This document shows, piece by piece, positions 11,122-32,000 of a stretch of DNA of 32,000 bases. The DNA is from Nostoc punctiforme PCC 73102 (GTDB lineage Bacteria; Cyanobacteriota; Cyanobacteriia; Cyanobacteriales; Nostocaceae), in contig NC_010628.1 of the NCBI RefSeq assembly GCF_000020025.1, positions 8,160,001 through 8,192,000 on the forward strand, read 5' to 3'. Numbering within the stretch: position 1 is the stretch's first letter; every line of letters starts with the position of its first letter. Position numbers and translations under genes: made by a program. The notes below the pieces were generated by a model that was not told the origin of the DNA, did no database searches, and worked only from the letters and a program-made list of their open reading frames with translations.

Positions 11122-11883
11122 CTAAATGACACTAGCAGAAAAAACGAAATCATTTGCTGTGAGGCTAGTTGATGTAACTCCAACTAATGAAGCCAACTCT
11201 GTATTTCCGGCTTTCACCAAAGTATCGCTACCTTGTTGTAATAGAGTTAAGGCACTAAATTGAGTAACACCAATACCGCCCAGCCCGATTTTATCAATGC
11301 CAACTACAAAATCAGTCACAATGTTCTTGCTAGTTGGCAGATTGGCGTTAGCAATCCAGAATTGGTCAGCACCAGTACCACCAGTTAAGCGATTACCACC
11401 CTGTTGACCAGCAAATAGCACATCATCACCATCGCCACCAGACAAGGAATCATTGAAATTGGAGAAGAGTTTGTCATCGCCAGAACCACCGTAGAGACGG
11501 TTATTGCTACCGCCACTTCTGAGGGTGTCATTACCTGAGCCACCAAATAATGATTGACGAGAACCTTCAATTACAGTGAGGCTATCATCACCTGTACCGC
11601 CAAGTAAATTATTACTACCACTGGCTTCTACTACGGTAATAACATCATTACCATTGCCACCATCAGCACTGGTATTTTGAGCCGGGCCATTTTGACCAAT
11701 AAATATCTGATCGTTACCGTCTCCTGTGGATACTGAAGAGTCGCTGCCGGCTAGTACCGTGTCTTCACCGTTTCCGGTTTGGATTGTGTTCCCTTTAGTA
11801 CCCTCGACAAAATCTGCTCCGTCACCGGTGAATAGAGTTTGATTTGGTTGAACGGTAATATCATCGCTGGTAGTAGAGCCAAA
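11122..11883 (-). repeat. Shared RTX/C-terminal cassette, copy 2 (3' end of the 2068-aa gene)
   Basis: Same cassette as 8045-8806. It encodes FGST(N/T)SDD...[15 protein letters not shown]...QFWIANA(S/N)[11 protein letters not shown]...[11 protein letters not shown]. The 3' flank 11069-11121 is also similar to 7995-8044. Confidence 0.9.
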
Positions 11884-14800: not shown

Positions 14801-17328
14801 TTTGTAGAACGCAACACTCCATTGTCGCTACCATTTACCCAATCGCTGAGAGGTTTACCAGCATTGAGTAGCTGGTCGTCTCCACGGTCTTCTGTACCTT
14901 TGGTATCATAAACAGCCGAGCGATCGACCTTAGTCCAAGTAGCTTTTACTTTTGTACCTTCTGCTAAGGTTTCATTGTCATATCCTGTCACCTTGAGGAC
15001 GTACAAATCTCCGTCTTTCAGGCCATTCGGGTCTTCTGCTGTTTGATTACCGACGAACATATATAGTTCGCCATCACCATTGTCTTCGGTTGATAGTAGA
15101 ACTGTTTTACCTGAATTGGTGGCGCGATACTGAGATGCTGCTAGTACGTTTTCTTTGGAGAAGCGACCTAAACCATCTATAGATTGAGCAGTACCATCAG
15201 TTGTGACGGACCAACCCAAACTATCACTATTCTGCTCATCGGCGGTAAAGAATATTGGCCCACCTTCAAAACCATAAGTTGCTAAGTATGCTGAACAGAA
15301 TCGACCAAAGTTAATACCTGTTTGGGTTACAGCATCAGATGTAACTGTAATCTTGCCTAATTCATTACCTTTACTATCAACCGCATTCTCTATTAGGTCT
15401 TTACCACCTACTAGCTTCCAGTTCTTATCAAATTGCAATAGCGAAATTCTACCGCCTGTAATTTGTCCAGAAATTGTGCTGGAAAAATCTGTTTTAGTAG
15501 TGTCGCTCAATTCATGGTTGACGAATACATAGTAAGCATCGTCAGTCTCATAAATGCCCAAACCGTCAGGGATGCCTGTAAAAGCATACTTTTCAGTACC
15601 ACTGGGGACAAAGGAACCAAATTCTCCCTGTAGCAATGGGATTTCATCTCCAACTGTCAGGAGTTGATTCAGTCTGTAATTTGACCCATCGAGTGCTTTA
15701 ACATAAGCGGGATCGGTCGTTCTACCATCTTGAACAGGCTTTTGAGCAATTTGGGGAATTGCGGCTAAAAGTTGTCCACCTTCTGCATGGTTGCCGTTGA
15801 GAATATTCTGGTCTGGCGCACCTGCTACATTATTTTTGACGGTGTGAGCCTGTACATCAAACAAGTAAGCACCGCTACCTGGTAATGATTCGGAAGGAAT
15901 TTCGATAATGCCAGAACTTTCCCACTGCCCTTTGGCATTTGGGTCGTTGTATACAGTACCAGCAGCATCTTCATTCAAAGCAAACACACGAGCGATCGCT
16001 TTGGTAGTGGGGTCGAAAGACCAAACAGAAGCTTCCCGGTTTTCTGCTGCCATTACGTCGCCACCGTAGGAGGTTTGATCCTCTTGAAGCAAGATTTTGC
16101 CAGATTTATCAACTGTGATGTTGTCATAGCTGACACCTTTACCAGGCCCACCCGTTAACAACAGTTCAAAGTCACTGATTCCGGCTGTGGGGTCGGAGGT
16201 ATTTAATTTAAAGCGGTAGAGTCTGCCATAAGGGTCTTCTGCTTCGGCAGGATTATCGGTTGCTCCGGCTGCTGTCCCCTGACCTTGTTTATTTTTAGTG
16301 CCTGTGGTGACGAAATAGAAAGTTCCTGGATTATTTTGATCTTCGGCAAAATCTTCAATGCGCTGGAAGCTGGTTGAATTGTTGGCAGAATTAACGAAGG
16401 CTGTGAGATCGCTACCATCTACTTTTGGTGTACCGTCTGCATTGAAGATGATTGATTTATCAACCTTTGTCCAGGTTGCAGCTTTTTGGGTGCCTTCGCT
16501 AACTTGACCCTCGAATTCTGCACCATTGACTTTCAGAACGTATAAATCTCCGTTATTAAAGCCATTGGGGTCATCTGCGGTTTGTTGACCAACCCATAAA
16601 TACAGTTCGCCGTCATCATTATCTTCTGATACAAACAGCACTGTTTGATCGGAGTTCTCTGCCCGATATTGAGAAGCTGCAACTACGTTCTCTTTTCTAT
16701 AGCGACCTAAGCCGTCAAGCGCCTGTGCTGTACCATCTGGGGTTACAGCCCAACCCCGACTTGTATCACCACCTTCTTCAGGAGCAAAGTAGACGGGAAC
16801 CTCTGTACCACTAGCATCTACGAAACCGGATTGGGCTAGGTAAGATGAGCAGAAGCGATCGAAAGGACTAATGGTTGCTCCACTGGCATTGGTGTATAAA
16901 CCAGTTTGAGTATTTAAGGTATAAGTGCCAGTTGAGTCTACTATGGTGTCAATCAGGTTTTTACCGCCGATGACCTTCCAATTTTCATCAAAAACAAACA
17001 GCGACACCCTCGCACCAGTGATTTTTTCACCAGGAAATGTGCTGGAAATATCTGTTGTGACAGAGCCGCCTAGCTCATGATTCAACCATACATAGTTGTA
17101 GGTTTTTCCAGCGATCGTTACTTGGGTAGCACCTGTGCCATCAGGAATACCAGTGAAGGCATATTTTTCGGTGGCATCAACTTGGGGGGCTTCATCGATG
17201 TCAAACGTGCTAGTTAACAGGGGTACTTCATCCCCTACAGTCAATAAAGGTACGATTATTCTATTGTCAGAGTTATTTACTGTATCGACGTAAGCCGATG
17301 CTGTTGTTCTTCCGTTCTCAATAGCCAT
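11122..17328 (-). CDS. Giant multidomain phosphoesterase: two tandem PhoX/DUF839-like beta-propeller units, a phytase-like esterase domain interrupted by a glycerophosphodiester phosphodiesterase (GDPD) domain, and C-terminal RTX repeats
   Basis: 2068-aa ORF. Residues ~1-530 and ~535-1010 are paralogous: [17 protein letters not shown](S/A)YLA, GLGR(Y/F)xKENV, EDNx[18 protein letters not shown]. The phytase-like N-half contains [13 protein letters not shown]...GQPIQGFSG...LSDNGYG. GDPD motif [19 protein letters not shown]...[18 protein letters not shown] lies at ~12575-13695. The phytase-like C-half follows, then the 253-aa RTX cassette. Assigning the two N-terminal units to PhoX is from memory of motif patterns and is the weakest part of this call. 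Confidence 0.75.
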
Positions 17329-17851
17329 AATTAGAATGTTTTTTGGTGGGTATTTGGATTTAGCTGCATCACAAGCTATTCAAGTTCTCTCAACTGCATT
17401 ACTTGTGGTAAAAAGCAATCATTTTCTCACTCTATTAACCGGAATTATGGGAATATTTCAGAATTACATTACAAAAATATTGTTCGGTTCAGTCGAAAAT
17501 TGCTATTAACTCCGAGTCTTTTTTCACAGTTATTGAAAGCTAGAGTAATGATGTTCAAATGTTAACTACTAATCTGTGTTAGCTAGTAAGAGTGTGCAAC
17601 TAAATTCCGAGTTTAAGTTGGTCGATAGTAGTTATGAGAGAACTTGACCATTATTAGAGATGTTTCCATTGAAAGATTAAGAAAAGAATAAGTTAAACGG
17701 AAGAGATGATTAAAATACATTTAAATAAAAAATAATTTTTATTCACCCTTGCTGTATAATTCTTTTTAAGAGTTTTAAAGAGATGAAAGTTAATTTTTTT
17801 AGTTTGAATTTGCTAGCGATCGCATCAACTTTGCTGTCCAATAAATAGGCT

Positions 17852-17879
17852 GTAGGGACGTATAGCGGTACGTCCCTAC
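17852..17879. repeat. GTAG...CTAC palindromic hairpin repeat (Nostocales-type short intergenic repeat), possibly a terminator for the 1417-aa gene
   Basis: GTAGGGACGTA-tagcgg-TACGTCCCTAC, a perfect 11-bp stem, 33 nt downstream of the stop at 17913. A degenerate copy, GTAGGGGCGTA-tagatg-TACGTTCCTC, lies at 7812-7839. Confidence 0.6.
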
Positions 17880-17912
17880 TAAAGACTGTTCTATGAGAAG
17901 CTAGGCAACGAA

Positions 17913-18677
17913 TTAAGCCACGATACTAGCCGAGAAAACGAAATCATTTGCTGTGAGGTTAGTTGATGTAATGCCAACTAATGAAGCCAATTCTGTATTT
18001 CCAGCTTTCACTAAGGTGTCACTACCCTGTTGTAATAGCGTTAAACCACTAAACTGAGTAATACCAATACCGCCCAGCCCGATTTTGTCAATTCCGGCTG
18101 TAAAATCAGTAATGATGTTCTTGCTAGATGGCAGACTGGCGTTAGCAATCCAGAATTGGTCTGCACCAGCACCACCACTGAGGCGATTGCTACCTCCTTG
18201 ACCAGCAAATAGCACATCATCACCATCGCCACCAAATAGCGAATCATTGGTATTAGAAAAGATTTTGTCATCTCCAGAACCACCATACAGACGGTTATTG
18301 CTGCCGTTACTGGTGAGGGTGTCGTTACCTAGACCACCAAATAATGATTGGCGAGAACCTTCAATGACTGTGAGAGTATCATTACCTTCCGCCCCAAACA
18401 AATTATTATTACCATTGGCTTCCACTACGGTAATAACATCATCACCATTGCCACCATCAGCACTGATATTTTGAGCAGCGCCGTTTTGACCAATTACAAT
18501 TTGATCGTTACCATCTCCGGCAGAGACTGAAGAGTTACTACCTACGAGTACAGTGTCATCATCATTCCCAGCCTGGATTGTATTACCTTCAGTGCCCTCG
18601 ACAAAATCTGCTCCGTCACCTGCAAAGAATGTTTTTCCTGGCTGAACTGTAATATTATCGCTGTTGCTAGAGCCGAA
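17913..18677 (-). repeat. Shared RTX/C-terminal cassette, copy 3 (3' end of the 1417-aa gene)
   Basis: Same cassette and same order of repeats, but visibly more diverged at the nucleotide level than copies 1 and 2. It ends ...[12 protein letters not shown]. Confidence 0.85.
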
Positions 18678-21600
18678 ACTGCCGAGGAAAGTTGGCTTTA
18701 CACCTGTCAGGTTAACAGGATTGCGGGGATCGTAACTTGTGGTGTCAATATTTAGAAAATTGGGCAAGGCATTGGCTATATTCTCCCAAGGTACCAACTT
18801 AAAGTTAGAGTTGACGTTTTCACCATCAATGTTTTTGGCCGGTTCATTGGAGCCATCTTGAGTTACAAATAAACCAAATGGGAAGTTCGGCCCCAGTGGC
18901 ACGTTAATCACATCTGCACCGTCTGATTCTTGTACCCTGTCAATTGACCCATTGTTACCAACGGCAAAGTTACCCACATATTCGTTATTGCCTTCACGGG
19001 TGTAGGCAACAAAGGTACTATCGCCTTGGCTGGATGCTAGCAGATAACCTGTGCCGTTTTTGCCGTAGTAGATGGTCAACCCTTCTGCATCATCGGTAAG
19101 GTGAGAACCACCCTCAAAACGGACGCGATCGATCAGCTTGCCTGTTGTGCCACCGTCTGGTTCTGCCTGAAATTTCCAGATGCCCACATCTTCTTGGGCT
19201 ATGTAGAGAAAGCCGGTTTCTTGGTCAACGACCATACCCTCTGTTTGGGGAGAACGGTCTGCGGCTGTGGGTGAGGGGATGGTGAACTCCCGTACCAGTT
19301 CCGCTCCAATTTTGCCATTACCTTTGTCAATTAGCTTGAATTGAGCTATATCTCCAGTTTGGCGGCGACTGGTAAAAACATAGTAATCATTAGTTATAGG
19401 GCTACGGTATAAGGTAAGCCCGTAAGAACTGCGAGTTGATGCGGAATAGGGAGGTTCAAAAGGTGAGGCTTGGAAGATAGTGCCAATATTGCTATCGGTG
19501 ATATTTTCTAGGTAGTTACCGTCTATGCCAGGGTTGGGGTTAATTTTGAAAATTGCTAGTTTATCATTTTGGCGATCGCTAGCTACGGCAATATCAATAG
19601 ATTGATTGCCTAATTTAAAACCGTATTGCAGATCGATGTTGTTGTAGCGAATACCACCAGGATTAACTGTTTGCAATAAATTACCAGACAGGTCATAAAC
19701 CCGCAATCCAGCATTTTTGACTGAGGTTAGTACTAAACTATCAGCAGCATTTGTGGCGTTAACATAGATGGCTGGGTCATCAGCATCAGCATTCTGATCT
19801 ACAGCAGGTAATGCTGGATCTTCATCGTCAAATAAACCAGGACGAGTTTCTACTGTAGGTGCAGCAGTTGGAACCAAGTCTGCACCCAAGGTGAGGATTT
19901 GGGTATATTGGGTGCTACTAAAGTTGTTGTCACTCACCAGCACAATGGACTGACGACCATCTGCTAGTTTGGGACCGAAGGCAAGACCTTCTATATTATC
20001 CACTCCTGTAATCGGGTGATTTGCATCAGTGGGCAGATTGAGGTCAGTTAAATTCAACAGCAGACGCTTTTGGGCGGGTTTAATAGCTGCTAGTTGTTCA
20101 GCACTCAAACTATTGAGAGAATCGTAGAAACTAATGTCAGTCGCACCTTGCAAAGAAACTTCGTAGATTTTGATGGTATTGCCTACACCTTGGGCAAAGG
20201 AGCGTTCTAAGGCGAGGAAAGTGCCACGATTATCTATTGCCAATAAATCCGCCAAACCATTGTCAGCAGAGCCTGTGCTTGGGTTAGGTGCTTCGGGAAT
20301 GGCATCGGTGATGTAAAGGTATTCTTTTTCTGGTTGTCCAGTAACCAGATTATATTGCAGAATCCGAGAAGAGCTACCACTGGTGAATGAGGCTTTTAAT
20401 CCATCTTGGGAGAGGGCGTTTTCGGTGGCGGTAAATAGGGTTTTCTGGTCGGGTGTGATGGTGAGGCTTTCAAATGCCAGGTTATTGTATACACCTGATG
20501 TCTGCGTATCTCCGGCATCTACAATACCATTGTTGTTGGTATCTTCAACTACTGGCAGGAATTTGCTGGGGACAAAAAGCGATCCTACTTCTTGCCCTGT
20601 TGTAAGAGAAAATTCTTTAATAAAGGGATTGGTAACACGACCAGCAGTAGGATTAACTTCGCCTTCTGAAGAGATGAAGACTGTTCCATTGTTGCTTAAA
20701 GCAATGCCTTCAGGGTCAAGACTATTTAGTGGAAAAAATTTGCCGTTGGTATCTTTTAGGGTGGTGACATTGGTAAAAGTCACCCCGGAATCGGCAGCAG
20801 TGAAGGTATAAAAGCGGGCAGGAGCAACTTGAGAGCGATCGTCTGAGATGGCATAATAGCGGTTGTTAACAGCATCGTATGTGACACCAGATAATCCGCC
20901 CACTGGAGTTGGTGTGCCGTTGACATTTCCCGCCGCACCAGCAGGAATAAAGCCAGTAACGAAGGTAGTCTGCCTTTCAAAACTTACATTGGGAATGGTT
21001 TTACCTGCTTGAGTTGGTCTAGTTTGCACATCTGCGAACACCAAGCGATGGTCAGAACTGGGGAAGGGAAAAGTACCAACTGGGGAGAATGCCGGGTCAT
21101 TATTCAGCGGCCAAAAGACTCCTGAGTCGGTAATTGTCAGGTCAGCAGAGGGTAGCACGTAATCAGTCCGCAGGTTTCCGGGAGCTGTATCAGCAAAGTC
21201 TGCGGTATCAAAGCTAGGATTTCCTTTTTGGCTAACGTTTGCACCACCTTGTAAAGCCGCTTGTTGGGGACCGCCAAAACTGGTAGGAATGACATTAGTA
21301 TTGATCCCAGGATTTTGCAACAGTTGGCGAATAGCATTGTCATAACTATCACCATCTAATGGGTCAGCATTCTGATCGCCCATAATTACAAAGTCTGAGC
21401 CAGCAGCAATACCGCCTGTTTTACCCTGGTCATCATAAATGTAATTACCATTACCAGGGGTAATATAATCTGCCCAAAACCGAATTTCGTCATGGTTGCG
21501 CTTGCCGTTGCGGTCTTCCGCGCCATCAAAGGTCGGGGGTGTGGGGTGGCTAACAAGGGCGTGAATTGTTTTGCCGTTCACTTCGATGGGTACATCCCAG

Positions 21601-22166
21601 TGGCTTTTAGAGGAGAGGCGTAAAAGTGCCAGTTCCTCCTGAGAATACCAATCATTTGCCTGTGGCGTTGTGGGATCGTCGGGAAGCAAAGCATTGGGCA
21701 TATCCTTCCAGAGGAAGTTTTGGAAGGTGCGGATATTGGCGGTGTCAATGGGATATTTGGACAGCAGCAACATACCATATTGACCAGGGAAATCACCAAA
21801 TCCGAAGGCATCATCGCCATATCCCGATGTGCCTGGGGTTGTAACTACTGCGCTATTGTTGTTTAAGTCAAAGCCAGAGGCAATACCTGTGTTGGAGGGA
21901 GCGATATAGAAGTAGGGGTAGTCAACGGGAGTCGCACCGTTTTGACTTATGGCTAAATAATTTTGCTGGAATAGTTTAACTGCCTCTTGGGAGTAGTCAA
22001 ACTCATTAATTAGCAGCACATCCGGGTTGTTACGCTGGATAATTTCTGCAATAGCTTTTGCCTGAGCATTATTGGGGGTTGACAAATCGGCCGCTAATTG
22101 ACCTTGAGTACTGCGGTTTAGAGAAGCATTGAATTGGGAAAAGCGAATTGTATTATTAATTACCAT
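17913..22166 (-). CDS. Multidomain phosphoesterase: endonuclease/exonuclease/phosphatase (EEP) domain, phytase-like esterase domain, beta-propeller 3-phytase domain and C-terminal RTX repeats
   Basis: 1417-aa ORF. EEP motifs: [27 protein letters not shown] (~21010-22166). The phytase-like region contains GGLSGVTYD...YYAISDD. The beta-propeller phytase signature [11 protein letters not shown]...[12 protein letters not shown]...YNNIDL (~18700-19860) resembles Bacillus PhyC. A 254-aa RTX cassette ends the protein. No signal peptide. Confidence 0.8.
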
Positions 22167-22469
22167 AAGTTAGTGCTGGGGTAGATTCAAGTTTTGCAAA
22201 GATTAGTGTTTATCTGCGGCAACCACAGAACCAAATTGCTCAATCTCATCGCTGTAAAAGTGTGAAAAATTCTGAGTGTTAATGTGATTTATATTGTCGG
22301 TAAAAACCGTTAACTGCAAAGATGCGCTTCGCAGTTTAGAGAGTTTGCAATATCAACATGGACAATATAAAATATGCCTTCCAAATCACTGCTCTTAGAG
22401 ATTGTTAGAAGACAGCTACATAACTTTTTATATGAGTTTTTAATTGGGCAATCTCAAAGTATCCTGCTT

Positions 22470-22499
22470 AGATTAAGAAGTAGCTAGCAAAAAGTTAAG
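22470..22499 (-). promoter_or_regulatory. Candidate Pho-box half sites 22 bp apart
   Basis: The minus strand reads CTTAACTT-ttt-GCTAGCTA-ctt-CTTAATCT. The two outer units match PyTTAAPyPy(T/A) 8/8 and are spaced by two helical turns. The middle unit does not match. The site lies ~305-330 nt upstream of the ATG at 22166. Confidence 0.25.
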
Positions 22500-22830
22500 A
22501 TAAAAATAATTGTAGGGTTAGAGATGTTTTTTTCACAGCAATTATTCTCAGTTATATATCCCAATACGGTTGGGTTGAGCGTAAGCGTTACCCAAAAAAC
22601 CTTGATAATGTTGGGTTTCGTTCCTCAAACCAACCTACGTCTGATTATGTATATGTTTTTCTCTAATTAAGTTTCAAGTTGTTTGAAAATTGTTTCACTG
22701 TAACTTGAGGTGCTTTTAAATTCACCTTAACCACCATTAAATTTATCGGATAACTTAGAGAATTTAAAATTTTTGATACCAATAAGAGGACTTTTCAAAC
22801 ATCCTCTTAATGATAAATCTTTCACCCGAT

Positions 22831-22860
22831 ATAAAATAAGGTGGGCTGTTTACCCACCTT
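22831..22860 (-). terminator. Rho-independent terminator downstream of the COP23-like gene
   Basis: The minus strand forms stem AAGGTGGG / CCCACCTT (22838-22845 pairs with 22853-22860) with a 7-nt loop, followed by ATTTTAT (22831-22837). It lies ~95 nt after the stop codon. Confidence 0.55.
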
Positions 22861-22953
22861 AATGTAAATCTGTATTTTAAGATTACCGCGACAGAAAAAA
22901 CGATATCTTTTAGTTTTGGTGAAATTGTTCTGACATGTTGAGTAATTCAAGCA

Positions 22954-23730
22954 TTAGCGGAAATTACCAGGTTTTAAGCGAACAGAGTTAGGCTGAGACT
23001 GGCGACGAACTGCTACTCCATTTCGCAAATTGTTTCCAGTACCACCATCTTGGCGATCGAGGAAAGGTTTTAGATTAATGCCACTTCTAGATGAACTAAT
23101 CCGATTATTGCCACTCCCTAAAAGTGTACGTCCTAAATTATATAATTCATTCCCTCCACTACTGCGATCGCCATAAGTGTTAACGGCTATAGTTTGCTGT
23201 CCGTTGTCAGCAGTAGTCAAGTTCTGAAAAATACTATTGCGGATTACAACAGGATCTTTTCCACGTGGTACTGTCAGCACAATTCTACAGGTTGGGTTAG
23301 CTTCTGTTGTGACGCAGACAATATTTTCGTTATTCTCTACAGATGTCTGGAGTTCTTGTAAGCCATCTGGACGATAAAGTTCTAAGCGACTGGCAATTGT
23401 TGCACAACGTCTTTGTGCATCCCAACCACCGCCCAAAGCCGCAGGTGCTGCCCAAGGAAAGAATTGTCCTGGTTGACTTTGTGGCTGATACATAACGGTA
23501 GACTGACCGTTGTAAGTCTGGCAGGTAAACCGAGTTGTACCGTCAGATGAGGGTGAAGGGGGTATACCTGTTGATGTGTCTATTGGGACTGATGAGCCAC
23601 CTGATGGGACTGTTGGCACTACTACACCGTCGCCAGTAGAGTCATATTGTGCCATTGCTACCGAATTGCCGAGACACAAAGAGAAACCCAGAATACCCAA
23701 AGACATAAATCGCAGTAGTTGTGATGACAT
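22954..23730 (-). CDS. Secreted COP23-domain (circadian oscillating protein 23-like) protein
   Basis: 258-aa ORF. Signal peptide MSSQLLRFMSLGILGFSLCLGNSVAMA, then a Pro/Ser/Gly-rich linker. The core has the COP23-like pattern F-x-C...G-x-x-T-V-M...F-x-W...W-x-x-x-x-R-C-x-x-I-(S/A)-x-R...I-V-C...C...L-T-V-P. The family assignment is recalled from memory, not searched. Confidence 0.6.
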   Translation of the reverse strand: MSSQLLRFMSLGILGFSLCLGNSVAMAQYDSTGDGVVVPTVPSGGSSVPIDTSTGIPPSPSSDGTTRFTCQTYNGQSTVMYQPQSQPGQFFPWAAPAALGGGWDAQRRCATIASRLELYRPDGLQELQTSVENNENIVCVTTEANPTCRIVLTVPRGKDPVVIRNSIFQNLTTADNGQQTIAVNTYGDRSSGGNELYNLGRTLLGSGNNRISSSRSGINLKPFLDRQDGGTGNNLRNGVAVRRQSQPNSVRLKPGNFR

Positions 23731-24057
23731 AAATCATCCTCCAGTAGAAATAAGTAGGGAATTGATAGTTTAAGTGACGAATAATTCTCTTTTTTGATTC
23801 ATTAAAAACAGTATTTTTTTTCTCCCTTGCTTTTTTCTCTGGGAGTACCTTTTTCACCCACCCTTGAATTTCTGCATAACGCTCTACTCCTTCATAGTTC
23901 ATTTCGTGCTGGAGCGCACCTAGACCAAAGGGTATTTTTCTCACTTTGATGAGGAATTAGCGAAATACAGATAGAGCGATCGCAGGTATTCTACAACAAG
24001 GTCGTATTTTGAGATGCGATACCTCCGGTGGGCAAAGCCAACGCACAGCAGTAAAAC

Positions 24058-24086
24058 ACAAAAAACCCCGGCGAAACTAACCGGGG
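24058..24086 (-). terminator. Rho-independent terminator for the Psb34-like gene
   Basis: The minus strand reads CCCCGG-ttagtttcg-CCGGGG followed by TTTTTTGTG (plus-strand hairpin 24066-24086, A-tract 24060-24065). Confidence 0.75.
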
Positions 24087-24141
24087 TAAGAGAGAGAGGT
24101 ACGAATGACGATGAGATACAGCGATACCGAAATTGAAAATC

Positions 24142-24312
24142 TTAGCTAACGCTAAAACTAATTAAAACTAAAGTTGTAACAATTAAAGTAGCAAAAAGAC
24201 CTTGTAAAACGTATTTACGTTGTTCCCAAATTGCTGGGTACTCGGCGTAGTAAACCTTGGGTTCAGCTGCGTAGTTATTGAGAATGCCGTCTTCATTTAC
24301 AGTGGTGTACAT
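24142..24312 (-). CDS. Small single-pass membrane protein, ssl1498/Psb34-family light-harvesting-like protein (not in the supplied ORF track, which omits ORFs under 60 aa)
   Basis: Hand translation gives MYTTVNEDGILNNYAAEPKVYYAEYPAIWEQRKYVLQGLFATLIVTTLVLISFSVS* (56 aa). The LNN(F/Y)AxEPKxY motif plus a C-terminal transmembrane helix matches my recollection of the Psb34 family. A purine-rich AGAAGAGA lies upstream of the ATG, and a strong terminator lies ~55 nt downstream. Confidence 0.6.
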   Translation of the reverse strand: MYTTVNEDGILNNYAAEPKVYYAEYPAIWEQRKYVLQGLFATLIVTTLVLISFSVS

Positions 24313-24526
24313 ATTTTTTTCTCTTCTTTTGTTTACTTATGTAACTAAATTTAACAGGATTGTTACGAAACGTCAAGAGGACTTGACAAAAAAGGGCTGA
24401 TTATTTTAATAAAAATAACTTATCAGGCATAGGGGATTGAGGCAAAGCTACCCCAGCCGCCGAAAATGTCATATATTACGCAATTTTTTAAATTGCAAAA
24501 TCTAAAATCCAAAATTGTATAAAAAT

Positions 24527-24615
24527 AGAACTTACGCAAAACTACACGCGGTAGGGGCAATTCATGAATTACCCCTACCGGAAAATAACGGTTTGGGCTA
24601 TTTTTGGCGTAAGTC
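24527..24615. repeat. MITE-like nested palindromic repeat
   Basis: The outer inverted repeat ACTTACGCAAAA / TTTTGGCGTAAGT encloses the palindrome GTAGGGGCAATTCATGAATTACCCCTAC (24551-24578). A further hairpin, AGAGACGCGAT-aaa-TCGCCGTCTCT, follows at ~24652-24677. Confidence 0.5.
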
Positions 24616-24739
24616 CTGAAAGAGTAGAGACAATACGGTTCGGTTAAGGCAAGAGACGCGATAAATCGCCGTCTCTACAAAGGACTTACTTATTAGACAT
24701 CTCCAGAAATTAATTATGCGTTACCTGAAACCCTTTTAG

Positions 24740-24790
24740 TGTCACTGTAACCATAAGTTTGCCGCTTTTGAAAGCATAACCTTGCCGCAG
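24740..24790 (+). repeat. Relic transposon end: two degenerate TnsB-binding-type repeats starting with TGT
   Basis: TGTCACTGTAACCATAAGTTTGCCGC + TTTTGAAAGCATAACCTTGCCGCAG. This parallels the live end TGTCACTTAAAGGATATTGTGGCCG + TTTTTAAAGCATAAAGTGGCCGCAG, which begins 3 bp further right. Confidence 0.6.
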
Positions 24791-24793
24791 GAT

Positions 24794-24844
24794 TGTCACT
24801 TAAAGGATATTGTGGCCGTTTTTAAAGCATAAAGTGGCCGCAGT
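24794..24844 (+). repeat. Terminal inverted repeat, tniQ-proximal end (two TnsB-site-like repeats)
   Basis: TGTCACTTAAAGGATATTGTGGCCGTTTTTAAAGCATAAAGTGGCCGCAGT. It equals the reverse complement of 30308-30358 except for G/C at position 34. Confidence 0.9.
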
Positions 24845-24878
24845 AGTAAAACCTTAGAGAAAGGCGAATAAATAAGAT

Positions 24879-26465
24879 TTACTGTGAAAGATCCAGTCTT
24901 ATCTGCCTTAAAACATCAATTACCTCAGCCTGCCACAGCAAAGAGGGATGAGGCATAAATTTTCTGAGATTTTTAGCAGTAGGGGTAATGCCTTGTGCAT
25001 GAAGTACTGAAGCGAGTTGGCGTACTTCTCGACAGCCTTGCTCAATAGCTAGTTTATGGACGAATTTGCGGTAATCTTTATAGCGTAAAGAAATAGCATG
25101 GCACACAATAGGGCAATAGTGGTAGAAAGTAGCCAAACCAATACCAGTTCTCTTAGCTATTTTTCTTAGAGAAGGTGGTGGATACTCGTCGCTAAACAAA
25201 GCTAATTCAAGTATGTCTCTGATGTGTAAAAATCTTAGCTGCTGTTGATATTCACTATATCTAGTAGCCAAAGATGCTGATAAAGATTTTGAGCAAGCAG
25301 TTAAACTACTAGGAGTTTTGAATCCTAAACGAACAGCTAATTGAGTTAAAGAAGGAGGTGGTTCTTCTTCTTGAGCTAGTTGCATCGCCTGAATAACTCG
25401 TTCGCACTTAGGACTACTATTTGAAGTAACTAAAGCAGACTGTGATGATAATTTTTTCTGTTTAGGAGCAGGTAGAGAAACTAGCTGCTTAAGAGTAAGA
25501 GGTAGTATTTTAAGTTGAAGAAAATCGACAAGATTAGTTGATAAGGCGTAGCAGATTTTCAAAAGTTTATCTAAATTTGGGATGGCTACACCTGAATACC
25601 AATGTAGAATTTCATATCTCGATAACCCAAGCCAACGACCAAAAGCGGAAACATTACCTTGAGTATATTGATAGACGTAAGCTTCTAGGATTGTTTTAAT
25701 AGTCTCTCTTGGAGGTGGACAAGGAAATTCAGGAGCTTGAGCAATTAAATCTCCTAAAGTCTTAACTATCCAAATCTCTTGCTGTAAATTGGGTATCTCC
25801 TCGAACAATCTCTTATCTGGCAAAGATACTTCATAGTTCATCCCCAACCAACCACCACATTTCAGACAAAATCCAGGTCGTGAGTTATGCCACAGGTGTA
25901 AAAATTCAAGGTCACAGTGAGGACATTTTGATTCTAAAAATCGATAATGGATGGGACAAATGTTAGCTGGTTTCAAAGCCCACAGCAGAGGTGAATAAAT
26001 GACTTGTTGATTATTTAACCAGTCTTGATAGCAATAAGGACACCAAGCATGAGAATGCTTGAGCAATCCCAAAACTGGGAAGACTTTTGCCCAAGGTAGC
26101 ATTGTCAAAAACTGTAAGTCAGTACGTTTTGTCAATATTTCTAGAGCAAAAACCAGTTGTTTAGCTCCAATTTGTGTTCCGTTTAAAGCTTTTACAGAAG
26201 CTTGTCCATACAAACTTACGATACTTTTAGAATTCAAGGGATTGGTAGTATGGTTATGCCCAACTATTGGTTTTATCTCTCTAGCCAATAAAGTTCCAGG
26301 CAATACGCTATGAGCTGCGGCTAGACGAGCAACATAGCTAGTCAGACTTTCAACATAACAAGTACCAAGTCCAATCGGTTCCAGATGAAACAACCGGCTA
26401 GGACTGGGAGTAAATTCTGGGTCTTTGAGCCACAATTCATCGTTAACCGCCATGTTAGTCATCAT
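24879..26465 (-). CDS. tniQ: TniQ-family target selector, TnsD-like (N-terminal TniQ domain with zinc ribbon, C-terminal HTH repeats)
   Basis: 528-aa ORF. TniQ N-terminus: LFHLEPIGLGTCYVESLTSYVARLA. Cys/His cluster: HAWCPYCY...CPIHYRF...CPHCD...CLKCG. Two HTH-like segments: PSLTQLAVRLGF and PSLRKIAKRTGIGLATFYHY. The size is typical of TnsD. The start overlaps the tnsC stop by 11 nt; an alternative ATG at 26453 lies 1 nt past the tnsC stop. Confidence 0.85.
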   Translation of the reverse strand: MMTNMAVNDELWLKDPEFTPSPSRLFHLEPIGLGTCYVESLTSYVARLAAAHSVLPGTLLAREIKPIVGHNHTTNPLNSKSIVSLYGQASVKALNGTQIGAKQLVFALEILTKRTDLQFLTMLPWAKVFPVLGLLKHSHAWCPYCYQDWLNNQQVIYSPLLWALKPANICPIHYRFLESKCPHCDLEFLHLWHNSRPGFCLKCGGWLGMNYEVSLPDKRLFEEIPNLQQEIWIVKTLGDLIAQAPEFPCPPPRETIKTILEAYVYQYTQGNVSAFGRWLGLSRYEILHWYSGVAIPNLDKLLKICYALSTNLVDFLQLKILPLTLKQLVSLPAPKQKKLSSQSALVTSNSSPKCERVIQAMQLAQEEEPPPSLTQLAVRLGFKTPSSLTACSKSLSASLATRYSEYQQQLRFLHIRDILELALFSDEYPPPSLRKIAKRTGIGLATFYHYCPIVCHAISLRYKDYRKFVHKLAIEQGCREVRQLASVLHAQGITPTAKNLRKFMPHPSLLWQAEVIDVLRQIRLDLSQ

Positions 26466-27594
26466 CTGAATTTACCCCTACATCATCTCTTTTAGGTTTT
26501 CTTTGTCCAACACGACCTTTTTTGAGTAGGGAATTTTTGGCTGGCATTTTTATTCCATGTTCTGTTGAATATTGCCGCTCAAAAAAACTGGATTCTTCTT
26601 GAAAGCGTTTAAATCCCTGTTGTGCTTCTTCCTTAATTTTGTTGATACGAGATGCAGAAAAAGCACCTAATTTAAGATGTTTGCTATTAAGAGTCCGAGC
26701 TTCTTCAGAATAGGCAACTCTCAAAGAACGAGTTAACCAATTCTTCAATAGCCCCACACAACCAACTGAGCCAGAAAAAAGATACTCATAGTGTTGTTCT
26801 AATTTTGGTTCTTGTACAAGCGGAATGTGGCGTTGAAAAGTTCTAATTACTCTAATAAATTCAGCAATATCTTCTGGGTTATCAGCTTGGTAAGGTAACA
26901 GGTGAATATCTTCGCTACGCCGCCCTATTTGCCCATTCAAGGTAGGACAGTTAAGCAGTTCATAAGTTCCAAATAAAATATGTACTGTACCAGTAAGATT
27001 AGCAATAGACTTAATCCAGTTCATTTGCTGTAACATCTGGTGTCCGCCTGCCATCATAAATAAATGCTGTGCCTCGTCTACAGTAAAAGCTTTTACCTGA
27101 CGATAACGAAATGCTTTTTCCATTGCTCGGCGTAATGCGGGCGAATCTTGGCGGTAAGCCCGATTTAGCAACCCCAAATCCTTTACCTCACCGTGAGGAA
27201 TTTCATAATCAATTTTGTATTCAATCAAAACTTCCTGAAGGGATTCTAGGGCGCGAGTGTAATAATCTTTATAGCTAAACTTTCCTTGTTCTGTTGGAAT
27301 AGCTTCAATACCAGCAACAGCAATTTGACCAGGATTTTGGCGTAATGAGGGGAGAAATTCGTAATTTAGCAGATTTTCCAGACGCAAGCGTAAGGTTGTT
27401 TTTCCTACACCAGTCACACCAAAAACTAAAAATACTAAAGTGTCAGCTGGCTCCAGAATATTAATTAATAAAGTATCTAAGGCTTGTTTGAGCCTTTGAT
27501 GTGGAATAGTGATACTTTTGAAATAATCAGTTTTAATTTCGTTCGGCTGTAAGAGAAGTTCTTCTGGAAAAGAGTGCGACTGAATTTTTACCAT
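26455..27594 (-). CDS. tnsC: TnsC/TniB-like AAA+ ATPase transposition regulator
   Basis: 379-aa ORF. Walker A is FGVTGVGKTT and Walker B is FTVDEAQH. The ATG overlaps the tnsAB stop (ATGGTAA). Confidence 0.85.
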   Translation of the reverse strand: MVKIQSHSFPEELLLQPNEIKTDYFKSITIPHQRLKQALDTLLINILEPADTLVFLVFGVTGVGKTTLRLRLENLLNYEFLPSLRQNPGQIAVAGIEAIPTEQGKFSYKDYYTRALESLQEVLIEYKIDYEIPHGEVKDLGLLNRAYRQDSPALRRAMEKAFRYRQVKAFTVDEAQHLFMMAGGHQMLQQMNWIKSIANLTGTVHILFGTYELLNCPTLNGQIGRRSEDIHLLPYQADNPEDIAEFIRVIRTFQRHIPLVQEPKLEQHYEYLFSGSVGCVGLLKNWLTRSLRVAYSEEARTLNSKHLKLGAFSASRINKIKEEAQQGFKRFQEESSFFERQYSTEHGIKMPAKNSLLKKGRVGQRKPKRDDVGVNSDDD

Positions 27595-30197
27595 AGCTCC
27601 TCTGTATTGTAAGCTTCTATTTTGGTTAAATCTATTAATTTTTTTGCTGATGATTTTGGCTTTTTAATGCTTTCTGAACCTGCCAAAATATTTTTATCTA
27701 CATCTTGAACATTAGCTGAATAATTGTGTTTACTTAATTTACTTTCAATAACTGAGCTTTTTTCAATTAAAACCCAAATATCTTGTTGTGCTAAATCATG
27801 TAAGCGTTGTAATAACAAAGTTTCTTGGGCTTCAGTTCCTTCTAAATATGTAGCTTTTTCTTGGGCAGATAGAGTAATTCTTTGAGCGTGTTTCTGCCTT
27901 TTTCGACGTAATTGTGTGCTGGCTATGTTCACTTCTTTTTCGGAACGATTTTGGAAGGATTTGTAATGTTCAGAAATACAGCGTATCCAACGTCCCTTAA
28001 CGTAAGCATAAGCAGTCCCCATATCAAAAGGGTCGTAACGAATAGGTACATTAGTTCCTTCAATTTCTGGTCTTATGAACGAATCATCAATTGACCAATA
28101 GTAGAGATAATTAATTTTCACGCCTCTACTTGGTTGAACTTTTGCAGTTCCTTTAGGTGTAGAAGGTAAGGTAAAAATCTTAAAATTATCATCATAAATA
28201 ATCTGTTTCTGAGGGCGATAACCACTTGAATTTAGCCCTGACATAAAAGTTTGACGTGGGCTTTGTCCTAATGTTGGATGTTCTCTGCAATCATAGAATT
28301 CGTAACAATATGAACAAAAGTTTTCGTAGAGTTGATCTAGTGTCCAAACAGCTTGATTTTTGGGATTATTTGATTTCGTGACTTGGCGGACATTCTTAGT
28401 AATTTGAGTGTTGCCTCTAAGATTATAAAAAAACTCTGTATTTGTAGTTCCAAAAATACGTTCAATAATTGAACCAAATCTGGCTTTCGCAGCTGGTCGC
28501 TGCTTTTTGGTACATTCAAAAGCCGCTAACAAGGTCTCAAAGTATGTACTACTAAATTCTGTCCCACCGTCAACAACTATTGTCTCTGGTAATTTCTCAA
28601 ATCGCTGTACGCAGATTCTTAATACCATCATGCAACTACGGTAGCTTGGCTCGTCAAAAGTTAGGTAAACTGCGAGAATACGTCGGCTGTAAGCATCGAT
28701 TAACAGAGTTGCCCAAGGTCTACCAAGAAGATAACCTGTTCGGGAGCATACTAACTCAATATCCAGTTGCGTATGGTCAATGTGTGCTATCTCAAATGGA
28801 CGGTCGCCATGACATGGTGTGGTTAATTTCAACTCCCAATACAATAAAGATTGTTGATAAGCTGCTCTGTTTCCCTTACGTTTTTTTGTTTGCCTATAAC
28901 CAGAACGATGTTGAATTCTAGAACAAAATGTAGCGTAGCTAGGCAGCTTATCTGTTAGACCTGCTTTCTCCCATTCTCTTGCTAGAATTCCATAAACAGC
29001 TAGTTTGCTTCTTTGTTGAAAAGTTTCATAATATTCTTCAATTATTTTGTCAATGAAATCTTGAGACGATTGAGAAATTCTGGGTAAGCGATTGCCTCTA
29101 GCATTAGAGTTATTTAGCAGCCCAATATAACCACATTTGTACGCCTTTTGTGCTGCTATAAACTTAGCCTTCCATCTGCGAATAGTACGTTGTGGAACAG
29201 TTTCTTTATCTCTATAACTGTCATTAAGATAAGGTTCAATTACTTCATATCTTCGGTTAGCTTCTGCCAAGTCTTCAGGACTAGCTCTCAAAAAACGCTC
29301 CATTGCTTTTGGAGACATTTTTACTTGATTATGAGTTTTAGGTTCCAGTTGATTGGGTTTAACATCTAAAATATTCAGAATCGTTCCATTATTCGGTTGC
29401 GATTTTATCATTTGTACATAAGCTACCGCGATTTCTTGGTCACGGAAAAGCTGTACTTTTTCTGGCTCTGCTAAGGGTGCGGCACTCAAATTAATGTAAA
29501 TTTTTTTTGTAGCTATTAAAGCATTTATGTCATCAGGATTGCTCTGTTGAGTATGAATCATTTCCCAATAACTTATGCCCGGATTTAAGCTAATTAACTT
29601 CACCAAATTTTCAGCTATTTCTGGGTCAATTTGGTAATCTTCAGTAGTATAGGCTTTGAGAAATAGTCGATTTCTGTATTTAATCCAATCAATTTCTGTA
29701 TCTAACCGAATTCGGTAATACAGTCCTAATTTTTCTGCATAAGCAACTGCTGGCAGGTTTAACCACTGCCCATCTTCTGAACGCATATAACGTTGTGATT
29801 GTTTAGCTGCTAATTTTTCTAATCTTGATTCTGGTTTCCACTCTTCAAAACCTGCACTCCGCTTCCGAATTACGAAAAAGTCTGGTATATGCGAAGCTTT
29901 GATTATTTCCCCACTGCTTGAGGGGAATTCTAGAGTAATTTGATATGCTTGGTCGTAGTATTCGAGTACATCTGCGTCTTCTTCGTACTCCTCTACACCT
30001 GGCAATTCAATTTTATGGGACTCAAATTGAATAGTTTTTCCCATTTTGCGACTGGCGTAGTCGCCCCGGACATTTATACCACTGCTTTTGACTCGCCGAA
30101 TTGGTTCAGAGGCACGGATTTGGGAAATTAATTGCCTAGCCTCTTGTGGTAAATTTACGCCGCGACACCAATCATTAAACTCTTGGTCGCTCAACAT
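27588..30197 (-). CDS. tnsAB: TnsA-TnsB fusion: N-terminal TnsA-type endonuclease domain fused to a TnsB/MuA-family DDE transposase
   Basis: The N-terminal ~130 aa carry TnsA-like motifs FESHKIE...HIPDFFV...FEEWKPE (E / D / ExK). The downstream DDE core has IAHIDHTQLD, VVDGGTEFSS and ERIFGTTNTEF. The ORF track starts at a GTG (30239). I prefer the ATG at 30197 (MLSDQEF...), which has GGGGG 6-10 nt upstream. That gives 869 aa. Confidence 0.85.
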   Translation of the reverse strand: MLSDQEFNDWCRGVNLPQEARQLISQIRASEPIRRVKSSGINVRGDYASRKMGKTIQFESHKIELPGVEEYEEDADVLEYYDQAYQITLEFPSSSGEIIKASHIPDFFVIRKRSAGFEEWKPESRLEKLAAKQSQRYMRSEDGQWLNLPAVAYAEKLGLYYRIRLDTEIDWIKYRNRLFLKAYTTEDYQIDPEIAENLVKLISLNPGISYWEMIHTQQSNPDDINALIATKKIYINLSAAPLAEPEKVQLFRDQEIAVAYVQMIKSQPNNGTILNILDVKPNQLEPKTHNQVKMSPKAMERFLRASPEDLAEANRRYEVIEPYLNDSYRDKETVPQRTIRRWKAKFIAAQKAYKCGYIGLLNNSNARGNRLPRISQSSQDFIDKIIEEYYETFQQRSKLAVYGILAREWEKAGLTDKLPSYATFCSRIQHRSGYRQTKKRKGNRAAYQQSLLYWELKLTTPCHGDRPFEIAHIDHTQLDIELVCSRTGYLLGRPWATLLIDAYSRRILAVYLTFDEPSYRSCMMVLRICVQRFEKLPETIVVDGGTEFSSTYFETLLAAFECTKKQRPAAKARFGSIIERIFGTTNTEFFYNLRGNTQITKNVRQVTKSNNPKNQAVWTLDQLYENFCSYCYEFYDCREHPTLGQSPRQTFMSGLNSSGYRPQKQIIYDDNFKIFTLPSTPKGTAKVQPSRGVKINYLYYWSIDDSFIRPEIEGTNVPIRYDPFDMGTAYAYVKGRWIRCISEHYKSFQNRSEKEVNIASTQLRRKRQKHAQRITLSAQEKATYLEGTEAQETLLLQRLHDLAQQDIWVLIEKSSVIESKLSKHNYSANVQDVDKNILAGSESIKKPKSSAKKLIDLTKIEAYNTEELW

Positions 30198-30307
30198 ATT
30201 GGCCCCCAAGCTTTTAAAGCCGCAACAAGCTCTTACCACAAATCTAGGCTTTCGCCAGTTAAACAGTCTTTTATTGATATAAATATTTATACTTACCAGT
30301 TCAGATG

Positions 30308-30358
30308 ACTGCGGCCACTTTATGGTTTAAAAACGGCCACAATATCCTTTAAGTGACA
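30308..30358 (-). repeat. Terminal inverted repeat, tnsAB-proximal end of copy 1
   Basis: Its reverse complement reads TGTCACTTAAAGGATATTGTGGCCGTTTTTAAACCATAAAGTGGCCGCAGT. Confidence 0.9.
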
Positions 30359-30449
30359 CAAATGGACTTACGACAGCTTGAATTTTTGGGGTTTTTAAGA
30401 GACAAACTTGCTACTTCAGGTATTTGAGGGTGCATAATCCCTTAACTTT

Positions 30450-30502
30450 CGGCACGTTTATGCTTGATTTTTAGACTTTCGGCAACTTTTTGGTTTCAAA
30501 GC
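30450..30502 (-). repeat. Two further degenerate TnsB-site-like repeats in the inter-copy spacer
   Basis: The reverse complement gives AAAAATCAAGCATAAACGTGCCGA and CTTTGAAACCAAAAAGTTGCCGA. Compare AAGCATAAAGTGGCCGC and TGAAAGCATAACCTTGCCGC of the live and relic ends. Confidence 0.45.
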
Positions 30503-30581
30503 CAAATTTTAAGGCTGCGATCGCCTACGGCGGGCGCTTGCGCCATCGCGGAACGTTAAATCAAGCCTTGGCGCTTATCCT

Positions 30582-32000
30582 TGTCACTTAAAGGATATTG
30601 TGGCCGTTTTTAAACCATAAAGTGGCCGCAGTCATCTGAACTGGTAAGTATAAATATTTATATCAATAAAAGACTGTTTAACTGGCGAAAGCCTAGATTT
30701 GTGGTAAGAGCTTGTTGCGGCTTTAAAAGCTTGGGGGCCAATATGTTGAGCGACCAAGAGTTTAATGATTGGTGTCGCGGCGTAAATTTACCACAAGAGG
30801 CTAGGCAATTAATTTCCCAAATCCGTGCCTCTGAACCAATTCGGCGAGTCAAAAGCAGTGGTATAAATGTCCGGGGCGACTACGCCAGTCGCAAAATGGG
30901 AAAAACTATTCAATTTGAGTCCCATAAAATTGAATTGCCAGGTGTAGAGGAGTACGAAGAAGACGCAGATGTACTCGAATACTACGACCAAGCATATCAA
31001 ATTACTCTAGAATTCCCCTCAAGCAGTGGGGAAATAATCAAAGCTTCGCATATACCAGACTTTTTCGTAATTCGGAAGCGGAGTGCAGGTTTTGAAGAGT
31101 GGAAACCAGAATCAAGATTAGAAAAATTAGCAGCTAAACAATCACAACGTTATATGCGTTCAGAAGATGGGCAGTGGTTAAACCTGCCAGCAGTTGCTTA
31201 TGCAGAAAAATTAGGACTGTATTACCGAATTCGGTTAGATACAGAAATTGATTGGATTAAATACAGAAATCGACTATTTCTCAAAGCCTATACTACTGAA
31301 GATTACCAAATTGACCCAGAAATAGCTGAAAATTTGGTGAAGTTAATTAGCTTAAATCCGGGCATAAGTTATTGGGAAATGATTCATACTCAACAGAGCA
31401 ATCCTGATGACATAAATGCTTTAATAGCTACAAAAAAAATTTACATTAATTTGAGTGCCGCACCCTTAGCAGAGCCAGAAAAAGTACAGCTTTTCCGTGA
31501 CCAAGAAATCGCGGTAGCTTATGTACAAATGATAAAATCGCAACCGAATAATGGAACGATTCTGAATATTTTAGATGTTAAACCCAATCAACTGGAACCT
31601 AAAACTCATAATCAAGTAAAAATGTCTCCAAAAGCAATGGAGCGTTTTTTGAGAGCTAGTCCTGAAGACTTGGCAGAAGCTAACCGAAGATATGAAGTAA
31701 TTGAACCTTATCTTAATGACAGTTATAGAGATAAAGAAACTGTTCCACAACGTACTATTCGCAGATGGAAGGCTAAGTTTATAGCAGCACAAAAGGCGTA
31801 CAAATGTGGTTATATTGGGCTGCTAAATAACTCTAATGCTAGAGGCAATCGCTTACCCAGAATTTCTCAATCGTCTCAAGATTTCATTGACAAAATAATT
31901 GAAGAATATTATGAAACTTTTCAACAAAGAAGCAAACTAGCTGTTTATGGAATTCTAGCAAGAGAATGGGAGAAAGCAGGTCTAACAGATAAGCTGCCTA
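30582..32000 (+). mobile_element. Second copy of the same Tn7-like transposon, inverted, truncated by the window edge
   Basis: The stretch appears to be the exact reverse complement of 28940-30358, with mirror axis at 30470. Mirrored track ORFs have identical protein sequences and constant offsets (30088..30282 vs 30658..30852, 29940..30131 vs 30809..31000, 29148..29369 vs 31571..31792). It starts with TGTCACTTAAAGG at 30582. Confidence 0.9.
30743..32000 (+). CDS. tnsAB: TnsA-TnsB fusion transposase, copy 2 (5' part only; continues beyond the window)
   Basis: The ATG at 30743 mirrors 30197. The sequence reads ATGTTGAGCGACCAAGAG = MLSDQE..., identical to copy 1 as far as the window extends. 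Confidence 0.85.
   Translation, partial: MLSDQEFNDWCRGVNLPQEARQLISQIRASEPIRRVKSSGINVRGDYASRKMGKTIQFESHKIELPGVEEYEEDADVLEYYDQAYQITLEFPSSSGEIIKASHIPDFFVIRKRSAGFEEWKPESRLEKLAAKQSQRYMRSEDGQWLNLPAVAYAEKLGLYYRIRLDTEIDWIKYRNRLFLKAYTTEDYQIDPEIAENLVKLISLNPGISYWEMIHTQQSNPDDINALIATKKIYINLSAAPLAEPEKVQLFRDQEIAVAYVQMIKSQPNNGTILNILDVKPNQLEPKTHNQVKMSPKAMERFLRASPEDLAEANRRYEVIEPYLNDSYRDKETVPQRTIRRWKAKFIAAQKAYKCGYIGLLNNSNARGNRLPRISQSSQDFIDKIIEEYYETFQQRSKLAVYGILAREWEKAGLTDKLP

Follow-up and report, generated by a model that had tools for sequence, protein, structure and literature searches.

Tn5469 of Fremyella (Microchaete) diplosiphon and the TnsAB-fusion clade of Tn7-like transposons to which it is related combine a fused tnsAB gene, tnsC and a single tniQ in a cargo-less element of about 5 kb, and such elements are multi-copy in filamentous cyanobacteria and have TGT/ACA ends (PMC9881144; PMC11406308). 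Here we analyze a transposon of the same layout, henceforth referred to as element A (5,565 bp), in a 32,000-nt stretch of the chromosome of Nostoc punctiforme PCC 73102 (ATCC 29133; NC_010628.1), which we call the window and whose positions serve as coordinates throughout. Two copies of A in inverted orientation have entered a host miniature inverted-repeat transposable element (MITE) of ~317 bp, which we call B and whose two ends we call B_R and B_L, and the core of B that lies between the two copies is inverted. Tn5469 has been described as untargeted, which we treat as the behavior of one member and not as a criterion of the family; copies of A, by contrast, are strongly concentrated within other mobile elements, 45-49 bp in from a terminus.

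The fused TnsAB of A comes from the clade behind the type I-B2 and type I-D CRISPR-associated transposon (CAST) tools, and reports on this clade conflict as to whether transposition proceeds by cut-and-paste or yields cointegrates. PmcCAST (type I-B2) was reported to form cointegrates at about the rate of the TnsA-less type V-K CASTs, whereas the fused TnsAB of McCAST (type I-D) acts by cut-and-paste only, with cointegrates in 0/150 events, as against 149/150 for its D106A mutant (PMC9881144). TnsA-less Tn7-like elements and type V-K CASTs transpose replicatively (reviewed in PMC11406308). PmcCAST and McCAST share with A the fusion of TnsA to TnsB and a conserved TnsA-site residue, D106; in contrast to them, A has neither a CRISPR module nor a second TniQ/TnsD. 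No tRNA gene, and no other classical attachment site, was found in the window, where the only Rfam match was to the small RNA (sRNA) PsrR1. The minimal three-gene A is a good natural test case for how a fused TnsAB behaves without CRISPR parts.

Two other groups of minimal elements with a TniQ/TnsD-type selector are directed to a short repeated feature of other genetic elements, namely the Tn5053 'res-site hunters' (PMC11406308) and a CRISPR-repeat-targeting family of cyanobacterial Tn7-like elements (PMC11837452). The apparent target of A differs from theirs, being the terminal ~50 bp of other transposons. On Microchaete and Tolypothrix plasmids, the best matches to the TniQ of A are only ~36% identical to it and are not equated with Tn5469. 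A match on the Allocoleopsis franciscana PCC 7113 plasmid NC_019740.1 is 36.6% identical, and CRISPR-repeat-targeting elements have been described on an A. franciscana plasmid (PMC11837452).

Inversion of the MITE core between two copies of A

The junctions of the two copies were read directly from the sequence (Table 1). AGGAT lies immediately left of the TGTCAC that begins at 24794, CAAAT follows the GTGACA that stops at 30358, and ATCCT lies immediately left of the second TGTCAC, which begins at 30582; the initial annotation had these three 5-mers and their positions correct to the base. A repeat finder placed the inverted arms at 28940-30358 and 30582-32000 (1,419 nt, 100% complementary), with 223 nt between them. 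The ends of A are fixed independently by a 5,566-nt unitig in the Logan assemblies that corresponds to window 24793-30358, that is, to A plus one flanking base, A being a multi-copy repeat in that sample. In GenBank, the protein order is ACC84852 (phytase), ACC84853 (COP23), ACC84855-57 (TniQ-TnsC-TnsAB, copy 1), ACC84858-60 (TnsAB-TnsC-TniQ, copy 2) and then ACC84861 (a DUF1611 protein), from which it follows that copy 2 is complete and that its tniQ end faces the DUF1611 gene. The TnsAB, TnsC and TniQ of copy 2 are identical to the three proteins of copy 1. The tniQ end of each copy points to the nearby terminus of B, and the tnsAB ends of both lie on the inside.

The outer flank of copy 2 lies past the end of the window and was reached through the exact ACC84861 DUF1611 protein in Logan assemblies, a collection in which other contigs are 100% identical to the window. 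Five contigs with this protein end in ...AACGTCT-CTAAA-TGTGACTGTAAGCATAAGTTTGCCGGGGTGGCACGTTTATGGTTT-CAAAT-TGTCACTTAAAGGATATTGTGGCCGTTTT; their order is thus the TTTAG side, the end of B, CAAAT and TGTCACTTAAAGG. Turned to the orientation of the window, they read from the end of A through ATTTG, 45 nt of the other end of B and TTTAG into normal flanking sequence, and so contain the very 5-mer, ATTTG, that had been predicted to lie outside copy 2. A first candidate for this flank, P0001, was dropped because it derived from an unrelated genome. Metagenome contigs gave 0 matches to the end of A joined to ATTTG and 0 to the end of A alone; that collection is without A, and the prediction is unaffected.

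Comparison with intact copies of B establishes which way the core once ran. Immediately left of copy 1, the 54 nt at 24740-24793 (TGTCACTGTAACCATAAGTTTGCCG...) resemble a Tn7-type end, and the 223-nt spacer has further repeats of this type; a B-type end on a plasmid of Nostoc sp. ATCC 53789 matches all 54 nt at 100% identity. In an intact ~290-bp B on a Nostoc edaphicum plasmid, the homologue of the spacer directly joins the reverse complement of 24740-24788. We reconstructed a 317-bp B from 24740-24793, the reverse complement of 30364-30576, ATTTG and the other end of B. This reconstruction covers 100% of each of three intact plasmid copies of B in a single BLAST piece and aligns with them end to end, unbroken across both insertion points. 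The position of AGGAT (AGGAC/AGGGC in intact B) and that of CAAAT each occur once in intact copies and twice in PCC 73102.

Because flipping the core back makes B collinear with the three intact copies, the inversion of the segment between the copies of A, as proposed in the initial annotation, is real: intact copies of B carry the core in the opposite orientation, and the two halves of each 5-bp duplication lie at different copies of A. The agreement of the 5-mers lies far beyond chance, since ATTTG was found, the MITE is collinear only if the core is flipped, and the 5-mers are single-copy in intact MITEs. The full structure is TTTAG-B(49 nt)-AGGAT-[A1]-CAAAT-core(213 nt, inverted)-ATCCT-[A2]-ATTTG-B(45 nt)-TTTAG.

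B is inserted between the DUF1611 gene and the psb34/COP23 genes and has its own 5-bp duplication, TTTAG, the second copy of which was seen past the other end of B in the Logan contigs. Window 12954-24739 has a collinear counterpart (97.6% identity) in the 8.33-Mb genome of a relative, which then passes from ...CCCTTTTAG directly into AGACGTTGCATTGCAACGTCT..., with neither B nor A; the same empty site is present in N. punctiforme UO1 and in a Nostoc metagenome-assembled genome (MAG). At this site three relatives read ...CCCTTTTAG followed by AGACGTTGCA..., with TTTAG once and no MITE. A relative holding the spacer in its present orientation at an empty site, which had been named as evidence that would speak against an inversion, was not among them; the three empty-site relatives lack B altogether. 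B is a non-autonomous Tn7-like MITE and is defunct. No effect of the inversion on the host is obvious, as the flipped 213 bp are non-coding and form the core of a dead MITE. The locus nonetheless offers a fully resolved natural case: all four junctions and both duplications are known, as are the MITE that hosts A and the site before its insertion.

We made several further observations on B and its surroundings. The B of PCC 73102 carries an extra 25 bp at 30525-30549 (CTACGGCGGGCGCTTGCGCCATCGC, holding the short palindrome GCGCTTGCGC), beside a HIP1 site, and in the alignment these 25 bp are missing from all three intact plasmid copies. In this region (window 24653-24676 and 24549-24580; empty-site relatives at loci L018 and L043), the insertion point of B directly adjoins a short hairpin repeat (AGACGTTGCATTGCAACGTCT), and another palindromic repeat (GAGACGCGATAAATCGCCGTCTC) occurs in copies on both sides of the site. 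These hairpin and palindromic repeats may be dispersed repeats of Nostoc by which intergenic insertion sites are marked.

Element A and its insertion into transposon ends

Three overlapping minus-strand genes occupy 24879-30197 of the 5,565-bp A, with no cargo. TniQ (528 aa) matched PF06527 (E 1.4e-15), together with an HTH_26 match below threshold, and TnsC (379 aa) matched AAA_22 and the TniB domain. That TnsA is fused to TnsB had been noted in the initial annotation and is borne out by the presence of PF08722, rve and Mu-transpos_C in a single 869-aa product. The TnsB part matched PF00665 (rve) and PF09299 (Mu-transpos_C) at residues 503-752 of an 883-aa open reading frame, and the TnsA part, for which the N-terminal 267 residues were searched, matched PF08722 at residues 74-163 with 30.1 bits (cut-off 26.5). 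Three stretches that may correspond to the catalytic motifs of TnsA (FESH58-61, PD106FF and EEWK121) are all present. Against solved structures, the top match to the TnsAB of A was by far that of PmcCAST (PDB 9BW1, E 2e-270), in two stretches spanning most of the protein; TnsB chains in the PDB were matched as well.

The ends of A, TGTCAC...GTGACA, belong to a 51-nt terminal inverted repeat (24794-24844 and 30308-30358, 98% complementary), and there are two subterminal GTGGCCG repeats at each end. A thus has the TnsB, TnsC, TniQ, TnsA-type domain, TGT...ACA ends and 5-bp duplication of a Tn7-like transposon, in the minimal Tn5469-like layout of a fused tnsAB, tnsC and one tniQ without cargo. 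Judged from its sequence, A is a member of the cyanobacterial TnsAB-fusion clade of Hsieh and Peters. A clean 5-bp duplication, TACTG, is present on both sides of a >90%-identical copy of A in Nostoc sp. CALU 1950.

Judging by the accessions whose A proteins are identical, the PCC 73102 genome contains at least five or six copies of A. Further copies with identical proteins (ACC84876-78, ACC84997-98, ACC85068 and ACC85418) lie within a few hundred genes of the locus, and one of them, only ~15 genes from it, has a TnsAB shortened to 811 aa; this clustering may reflect local hopping or a recent burst. A search of Logan with TniQ returned only ~5.5-kb unitigs ending at the termini of A, as short-read assemblies collapse the element. 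These unitigs contain one variable position, at which the tniQ end of copy 2 has the base of copy 1, and this position carries no linkage information.

A foreign TGT terminus was found 50-54 nt outside the tniQ end (that is, 45-49 nt plus the 5-bp duplication) in six of the nine full-length A copies with a readable flank on that side. These six are the two copies of the window (B-type ends), the copies in Nostoc sp. CALU 1950 and Nostoc sp. DedQUE05, and those in two contigs with a different host end; the host of the CALU 1950 copy is a full-length B-type element, entered at its tnsAB-proximal end. The background chance of TGT in that 5-nt interval is 0.068, a comparison that is post hoc and indicative only. 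On the tnsAB side, the same TGT spacing was present in 0/4 of the flanks first examined and in one later copy, from FACHB-252. Miniature elements of the A type show equal spacing in Nostoc sp. ATCC 53789, N. flagelliforme, DedQUE05 and Calothrix. From these flanks it looks as if the A family targets other transposons at their ends, which would be the opposite of Tn7 target immunity. No description of targeting to the terminal ~50 bp of transposons was found in the literature searched, and this preference is the more novel lead from the locus; if confirmed, it would represent a new target-selection lifestyle among Tn7-like elements and would explain the nested arrays of Tn7-like ends in Nostoc genomes. 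A shared motif at the insertion sites, a weak likeness to GCTTGAWTT noticed by eye, was absent at other loci and was dropped.

Nested insertions were recorded at loci L001, L010, L016, L045, L046, L047, L050 and L053, in host ends of at least three sequence types. The tniQ end of nested A copies usually faces the host terminus; L053 is reversed. In L047, on the complete N. flagelliforme plasmid NZ_CP024792.1 (650-960), a 200-bp mini-A occupies the hot spot of a B-type end without a target duplication, and the B sequence runs continuously across it, from ...TTGCCGCA on one side to GGACAAGCG on the other. A mini-A in L016 and a nested relative in the long-read contig L042 likewise lack a duplication, as do L011, L037 and L039, which are MAG contigs and may join the flanks of different copies. 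In L011 (Nostoc sp. TH1S01; 1-108 and 5674-5818), a copy of A lies between diverged inverted Tn7-like ends of a third type (GTCCATTTTCTT repeats ... ACGAAGTTATAAGTAT), its flanking 5-mers, CAACT and AAATT, do not match, and its flank adjoins the opposite end of A in a Nostoc sp. C057 plasmid (L017, 5880-6000). This layout suggests that comparable rearrangements have taken place at other loci, or that the MAG contig is chimeric. In L037 (10689-10730; TniQ 68% identical) and L042 (11488-11520; TniQ ~49% identical), more distant relatives of A have their ends 29-32 nt inside a near-identical foreign terminus (GGCAATATTATCCTTCCACYGACA), so the nesting habit seems older than the A family itself.

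Origin of the inverted pair

Inversions between inverted transposon copies are already known and are textbook biology. Recombination can flip the segment between long inverted repeats back and forth, as in inverted copies of insertion sequences (IS) or transposons and in plastid inverted repeats, and such systems resemble this locus in their long identical inverted repeats, short unique segment and reciprocally exchanged flanks. Duplicative inversion by intramolecular replicative transposition is known for Mu, Tn3, IS elements and Tn7 with a TnsA catalytic mutant; its end product is identical to this locus, although here the TnsA domain looks intact. The initial annotation had offered both routes. 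An inversion by either fits our results, but we do not favor the replicative one, from which recombination is not separable by sequence: the mechanism is not decidable on that basis, as the junctions would be the same in both flip states.

We lean towards an origin in two separate insertions of A, followed by homologous recombination between the copies. The ends of B would be preferred targets of the A family and would have received A in two independent events, both of them simple insertions that made the usual 5-bp duplication. The identical 5.5-kb inverted copies would then have undergone homologous recombination of the RecA type, and this would have flipped the core; the core would probably still flip both ways, and the reference would represent one of two interconverting isomers. 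Targeting explains the pair, in that the two inverted ends of the MITE offer two targets in opposite orientations, as seen, yet it fits a second independent insertion and an intramolecular jump equally and hence does not discriminate between the routes.

Several lines of evidence favor two insertions and recombination. As expected of homologous recombination, the copies are identical at 1,419/1,419 nt and in all three proteins, and their flanks are reciprocally exchanged. In addition, the A family makes ordinary 5-bp duplications, as seen for the CALU 1950 copy, and a TnsA domain that looks intact is here combined with many identical donor copies and an ideal substrate for recombination. The McCAST fusion, free of cointegrates in 150 events (PMC9881144), points the same way. 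Other observations weigh on the opposite side. Among the strains found, there was no un-flipped isomer and no MITE with a single A, and B is missing from the three relatives. Typical Tn7-like target immunity, which has been described for Tn6022 (PMC11014353), would stand against a second insertion only 213 bp from a copy already in place. The closest characterized and solved relative of the TnsAB of A, that of PmcCAST, reportedly makes cointegrates, so replicative chemistry in this clade would not be far-fetched. Finally, the sequence as it stands exactly matches the product of a one-step duplicative inversion.

Such a one-step event is a possibility to which we give limited weight. It would begin with A at AGGAT; on a later occasion TnsA activity would fail and leave the 5' strands uncut, the 3' ends would attack ATTTG as a target within the same molecule, at a distance of 213 bp, and replication would yield an inverted copy and a flipped core. 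A single primary insertion would be enough, and the formula x[L..R]rc(t)-rc(seg)-rc(x)[R..L]t accounts for every base seen, including the two inverted copies, the inverted segment and the two duplications, both split and inverted. The hot-spot orientation, with the tniQ end towards the terminus of B, would be expected to give inversion and not deletion. The TnsAB of A is nearest to that of PmcCAST, which reportedly forms cointegrates despite its TnsA domain, and as A has a D106 matching the residue whose mutation in McCAST TnsAB gave 149/150 cointegrates, one catalytic failure would suffice (PMC9881144). However, the TnsA domain scores above the Pfam threshold with its three putative catalytic motifs present, a close copy of A elsewhere has an ordinary 5-bp duplication, and the wild-type McCAST fusion gave 0/150 cointegrates (PMC9881144). 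Target immunity at 213 bp would have to be overcome by this route as well. Nor does the present orientation of the core say much about origin, since identical inverted repeats of 5.5 kb would let the core flip repeatedly, and later recombination would randomize whatever orientation the founding event had left. A broader proposal, that A is a 'transposon-end hunter' whose TniQ/TnsC homes 45-49 bp inside heterologous termini and that the inverted pair is also a replicative intramolecular footprint of the fused TnsA-TnsB, left by a jump between the two ends of the MITE, we regard as doubtful.

It is improbable that the inversion exists only in the assembly, with the true chromosome un-flipped, AGGAT...AGGAT and ATTTG...ATTTG flanking two simple insertions, and the 223-bp unique piece between the two 5.5-kb repeats mis-oriented by the assembler. 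Both inner ends being tnsAB ends, the inner junctions of the two isomers are reverse complements of each other and the outer junctions do not change, so short reads cannot separate the isomers; orienting the core needs clones or reads >5.6 kb, and the Logan short-read assemblies collapse A to a ~5.5-kb unitig. Against this, the window belongs to a finished, contiguous chromosome (an 8,234,322-bp contig carries the proteins of the window), which was presumably completed from paired-end clone libraries that could bridge 5.6 kb, and recombination would be expected to make the present isomer in the cell regardless. Lastly, we give virtually no credence to a fold-back (palindromic) duplication of a single copy with its flank, or to coincidental 5-mers, for although the 5.5-kb arms and the 223-bp spacer make the locus an almost perfect palindrome, a fold-back predicts ATCCT and B_R outside copy 2, where ATTTG, a distinct B_L, TTTAG and normal neighboring sequence were seen, which rules it out because the outer flank is the other end of B and not the left flank mirrored, and two independent 5-mer matches together with the collinearity of the MITE exclude coincidence.

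Coordinates and other features of the window

Table 1. Features of the A/B locus, in coordinates of the window
Feature	Position	Strand	Evidence or remark
Left TTTAG, target duplication of MITE B	24735..24739		Single TTTAG in three empty-site relatives
B_R, terminal 49 nt of MITE B (TGTCACTGTAACCATAAGTTTGCCG...ATAACCTTGCCGC)	24740..24788	+	Two putative TnsB-binding-like repeats
AGGAT, one half of the duplication for A insertion 1	24789..24793		Single AGGAC/AGGGC in intact B copies
Element A copy 1, 5,565 bp, cargo-less Tn7-like, TGTCAC...GTGACA	24794..30358	-	Repeat finder, open reading frames, domains, Logan unitig
tniQ-proximal (left) end, copy 1	24794..24844	+	51-nt terminal inverted repeat, two GTGGCCG repeats
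tniQ, 528 aa	24879..26465	-	PF06527; ACC84855, ACC84860
tnsC, 379 aa, AAA+ regulator	26455..27594	-	AAA_22, TniB; ACC84856, ACC84859
tnsAB fusion, 869 aa, TnsA-like nuclease then DDE transposase	27588..30197	-	PF08722, rve, Mu-transpos_C
tnsAB-proximal (right) end, copy 1	30308..30358	+	Repeat finder
CAAAT, inverted half of the duplication for A insertion 2	30359..30363		Partner ATTTG on the outer side of copy 2, past the end of the window
MITE B core, 213 bp, in the orientation opposite to B_R (24740-24788)	30364..30576	-	Putative inner TnsB-binding-like repeats
ATCCT, second AGGAT copy, inverted along with the core	30577..30581		Sequence read directly
Element A copy 2, tnsAB end first, tnsAB from 30743	30582..32000	+	Runs past the window; 1,419 nt 100% identical to copy 1

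Two features of the window lie outside the A/B locus. The Rfam match to PsrR1 is at 24061-24143 on the minus strand (56.5 bits, gathering score 42); it adjoins the psb34 and COP23 genes and is about 600-650 bp from the MITE site. Three direct repeats of ~300 nt, 81-96% identical, are found at 8030-8353, 11107-11430 and 17901-18224, with shorter related repeats nearby, and at least the third lies within the 3' part of the phytase gene (17913-22166). By the annotation of related loci, these repeats probably mark paralogous genes for large secreted phosphatases with calcium-binding repeats.

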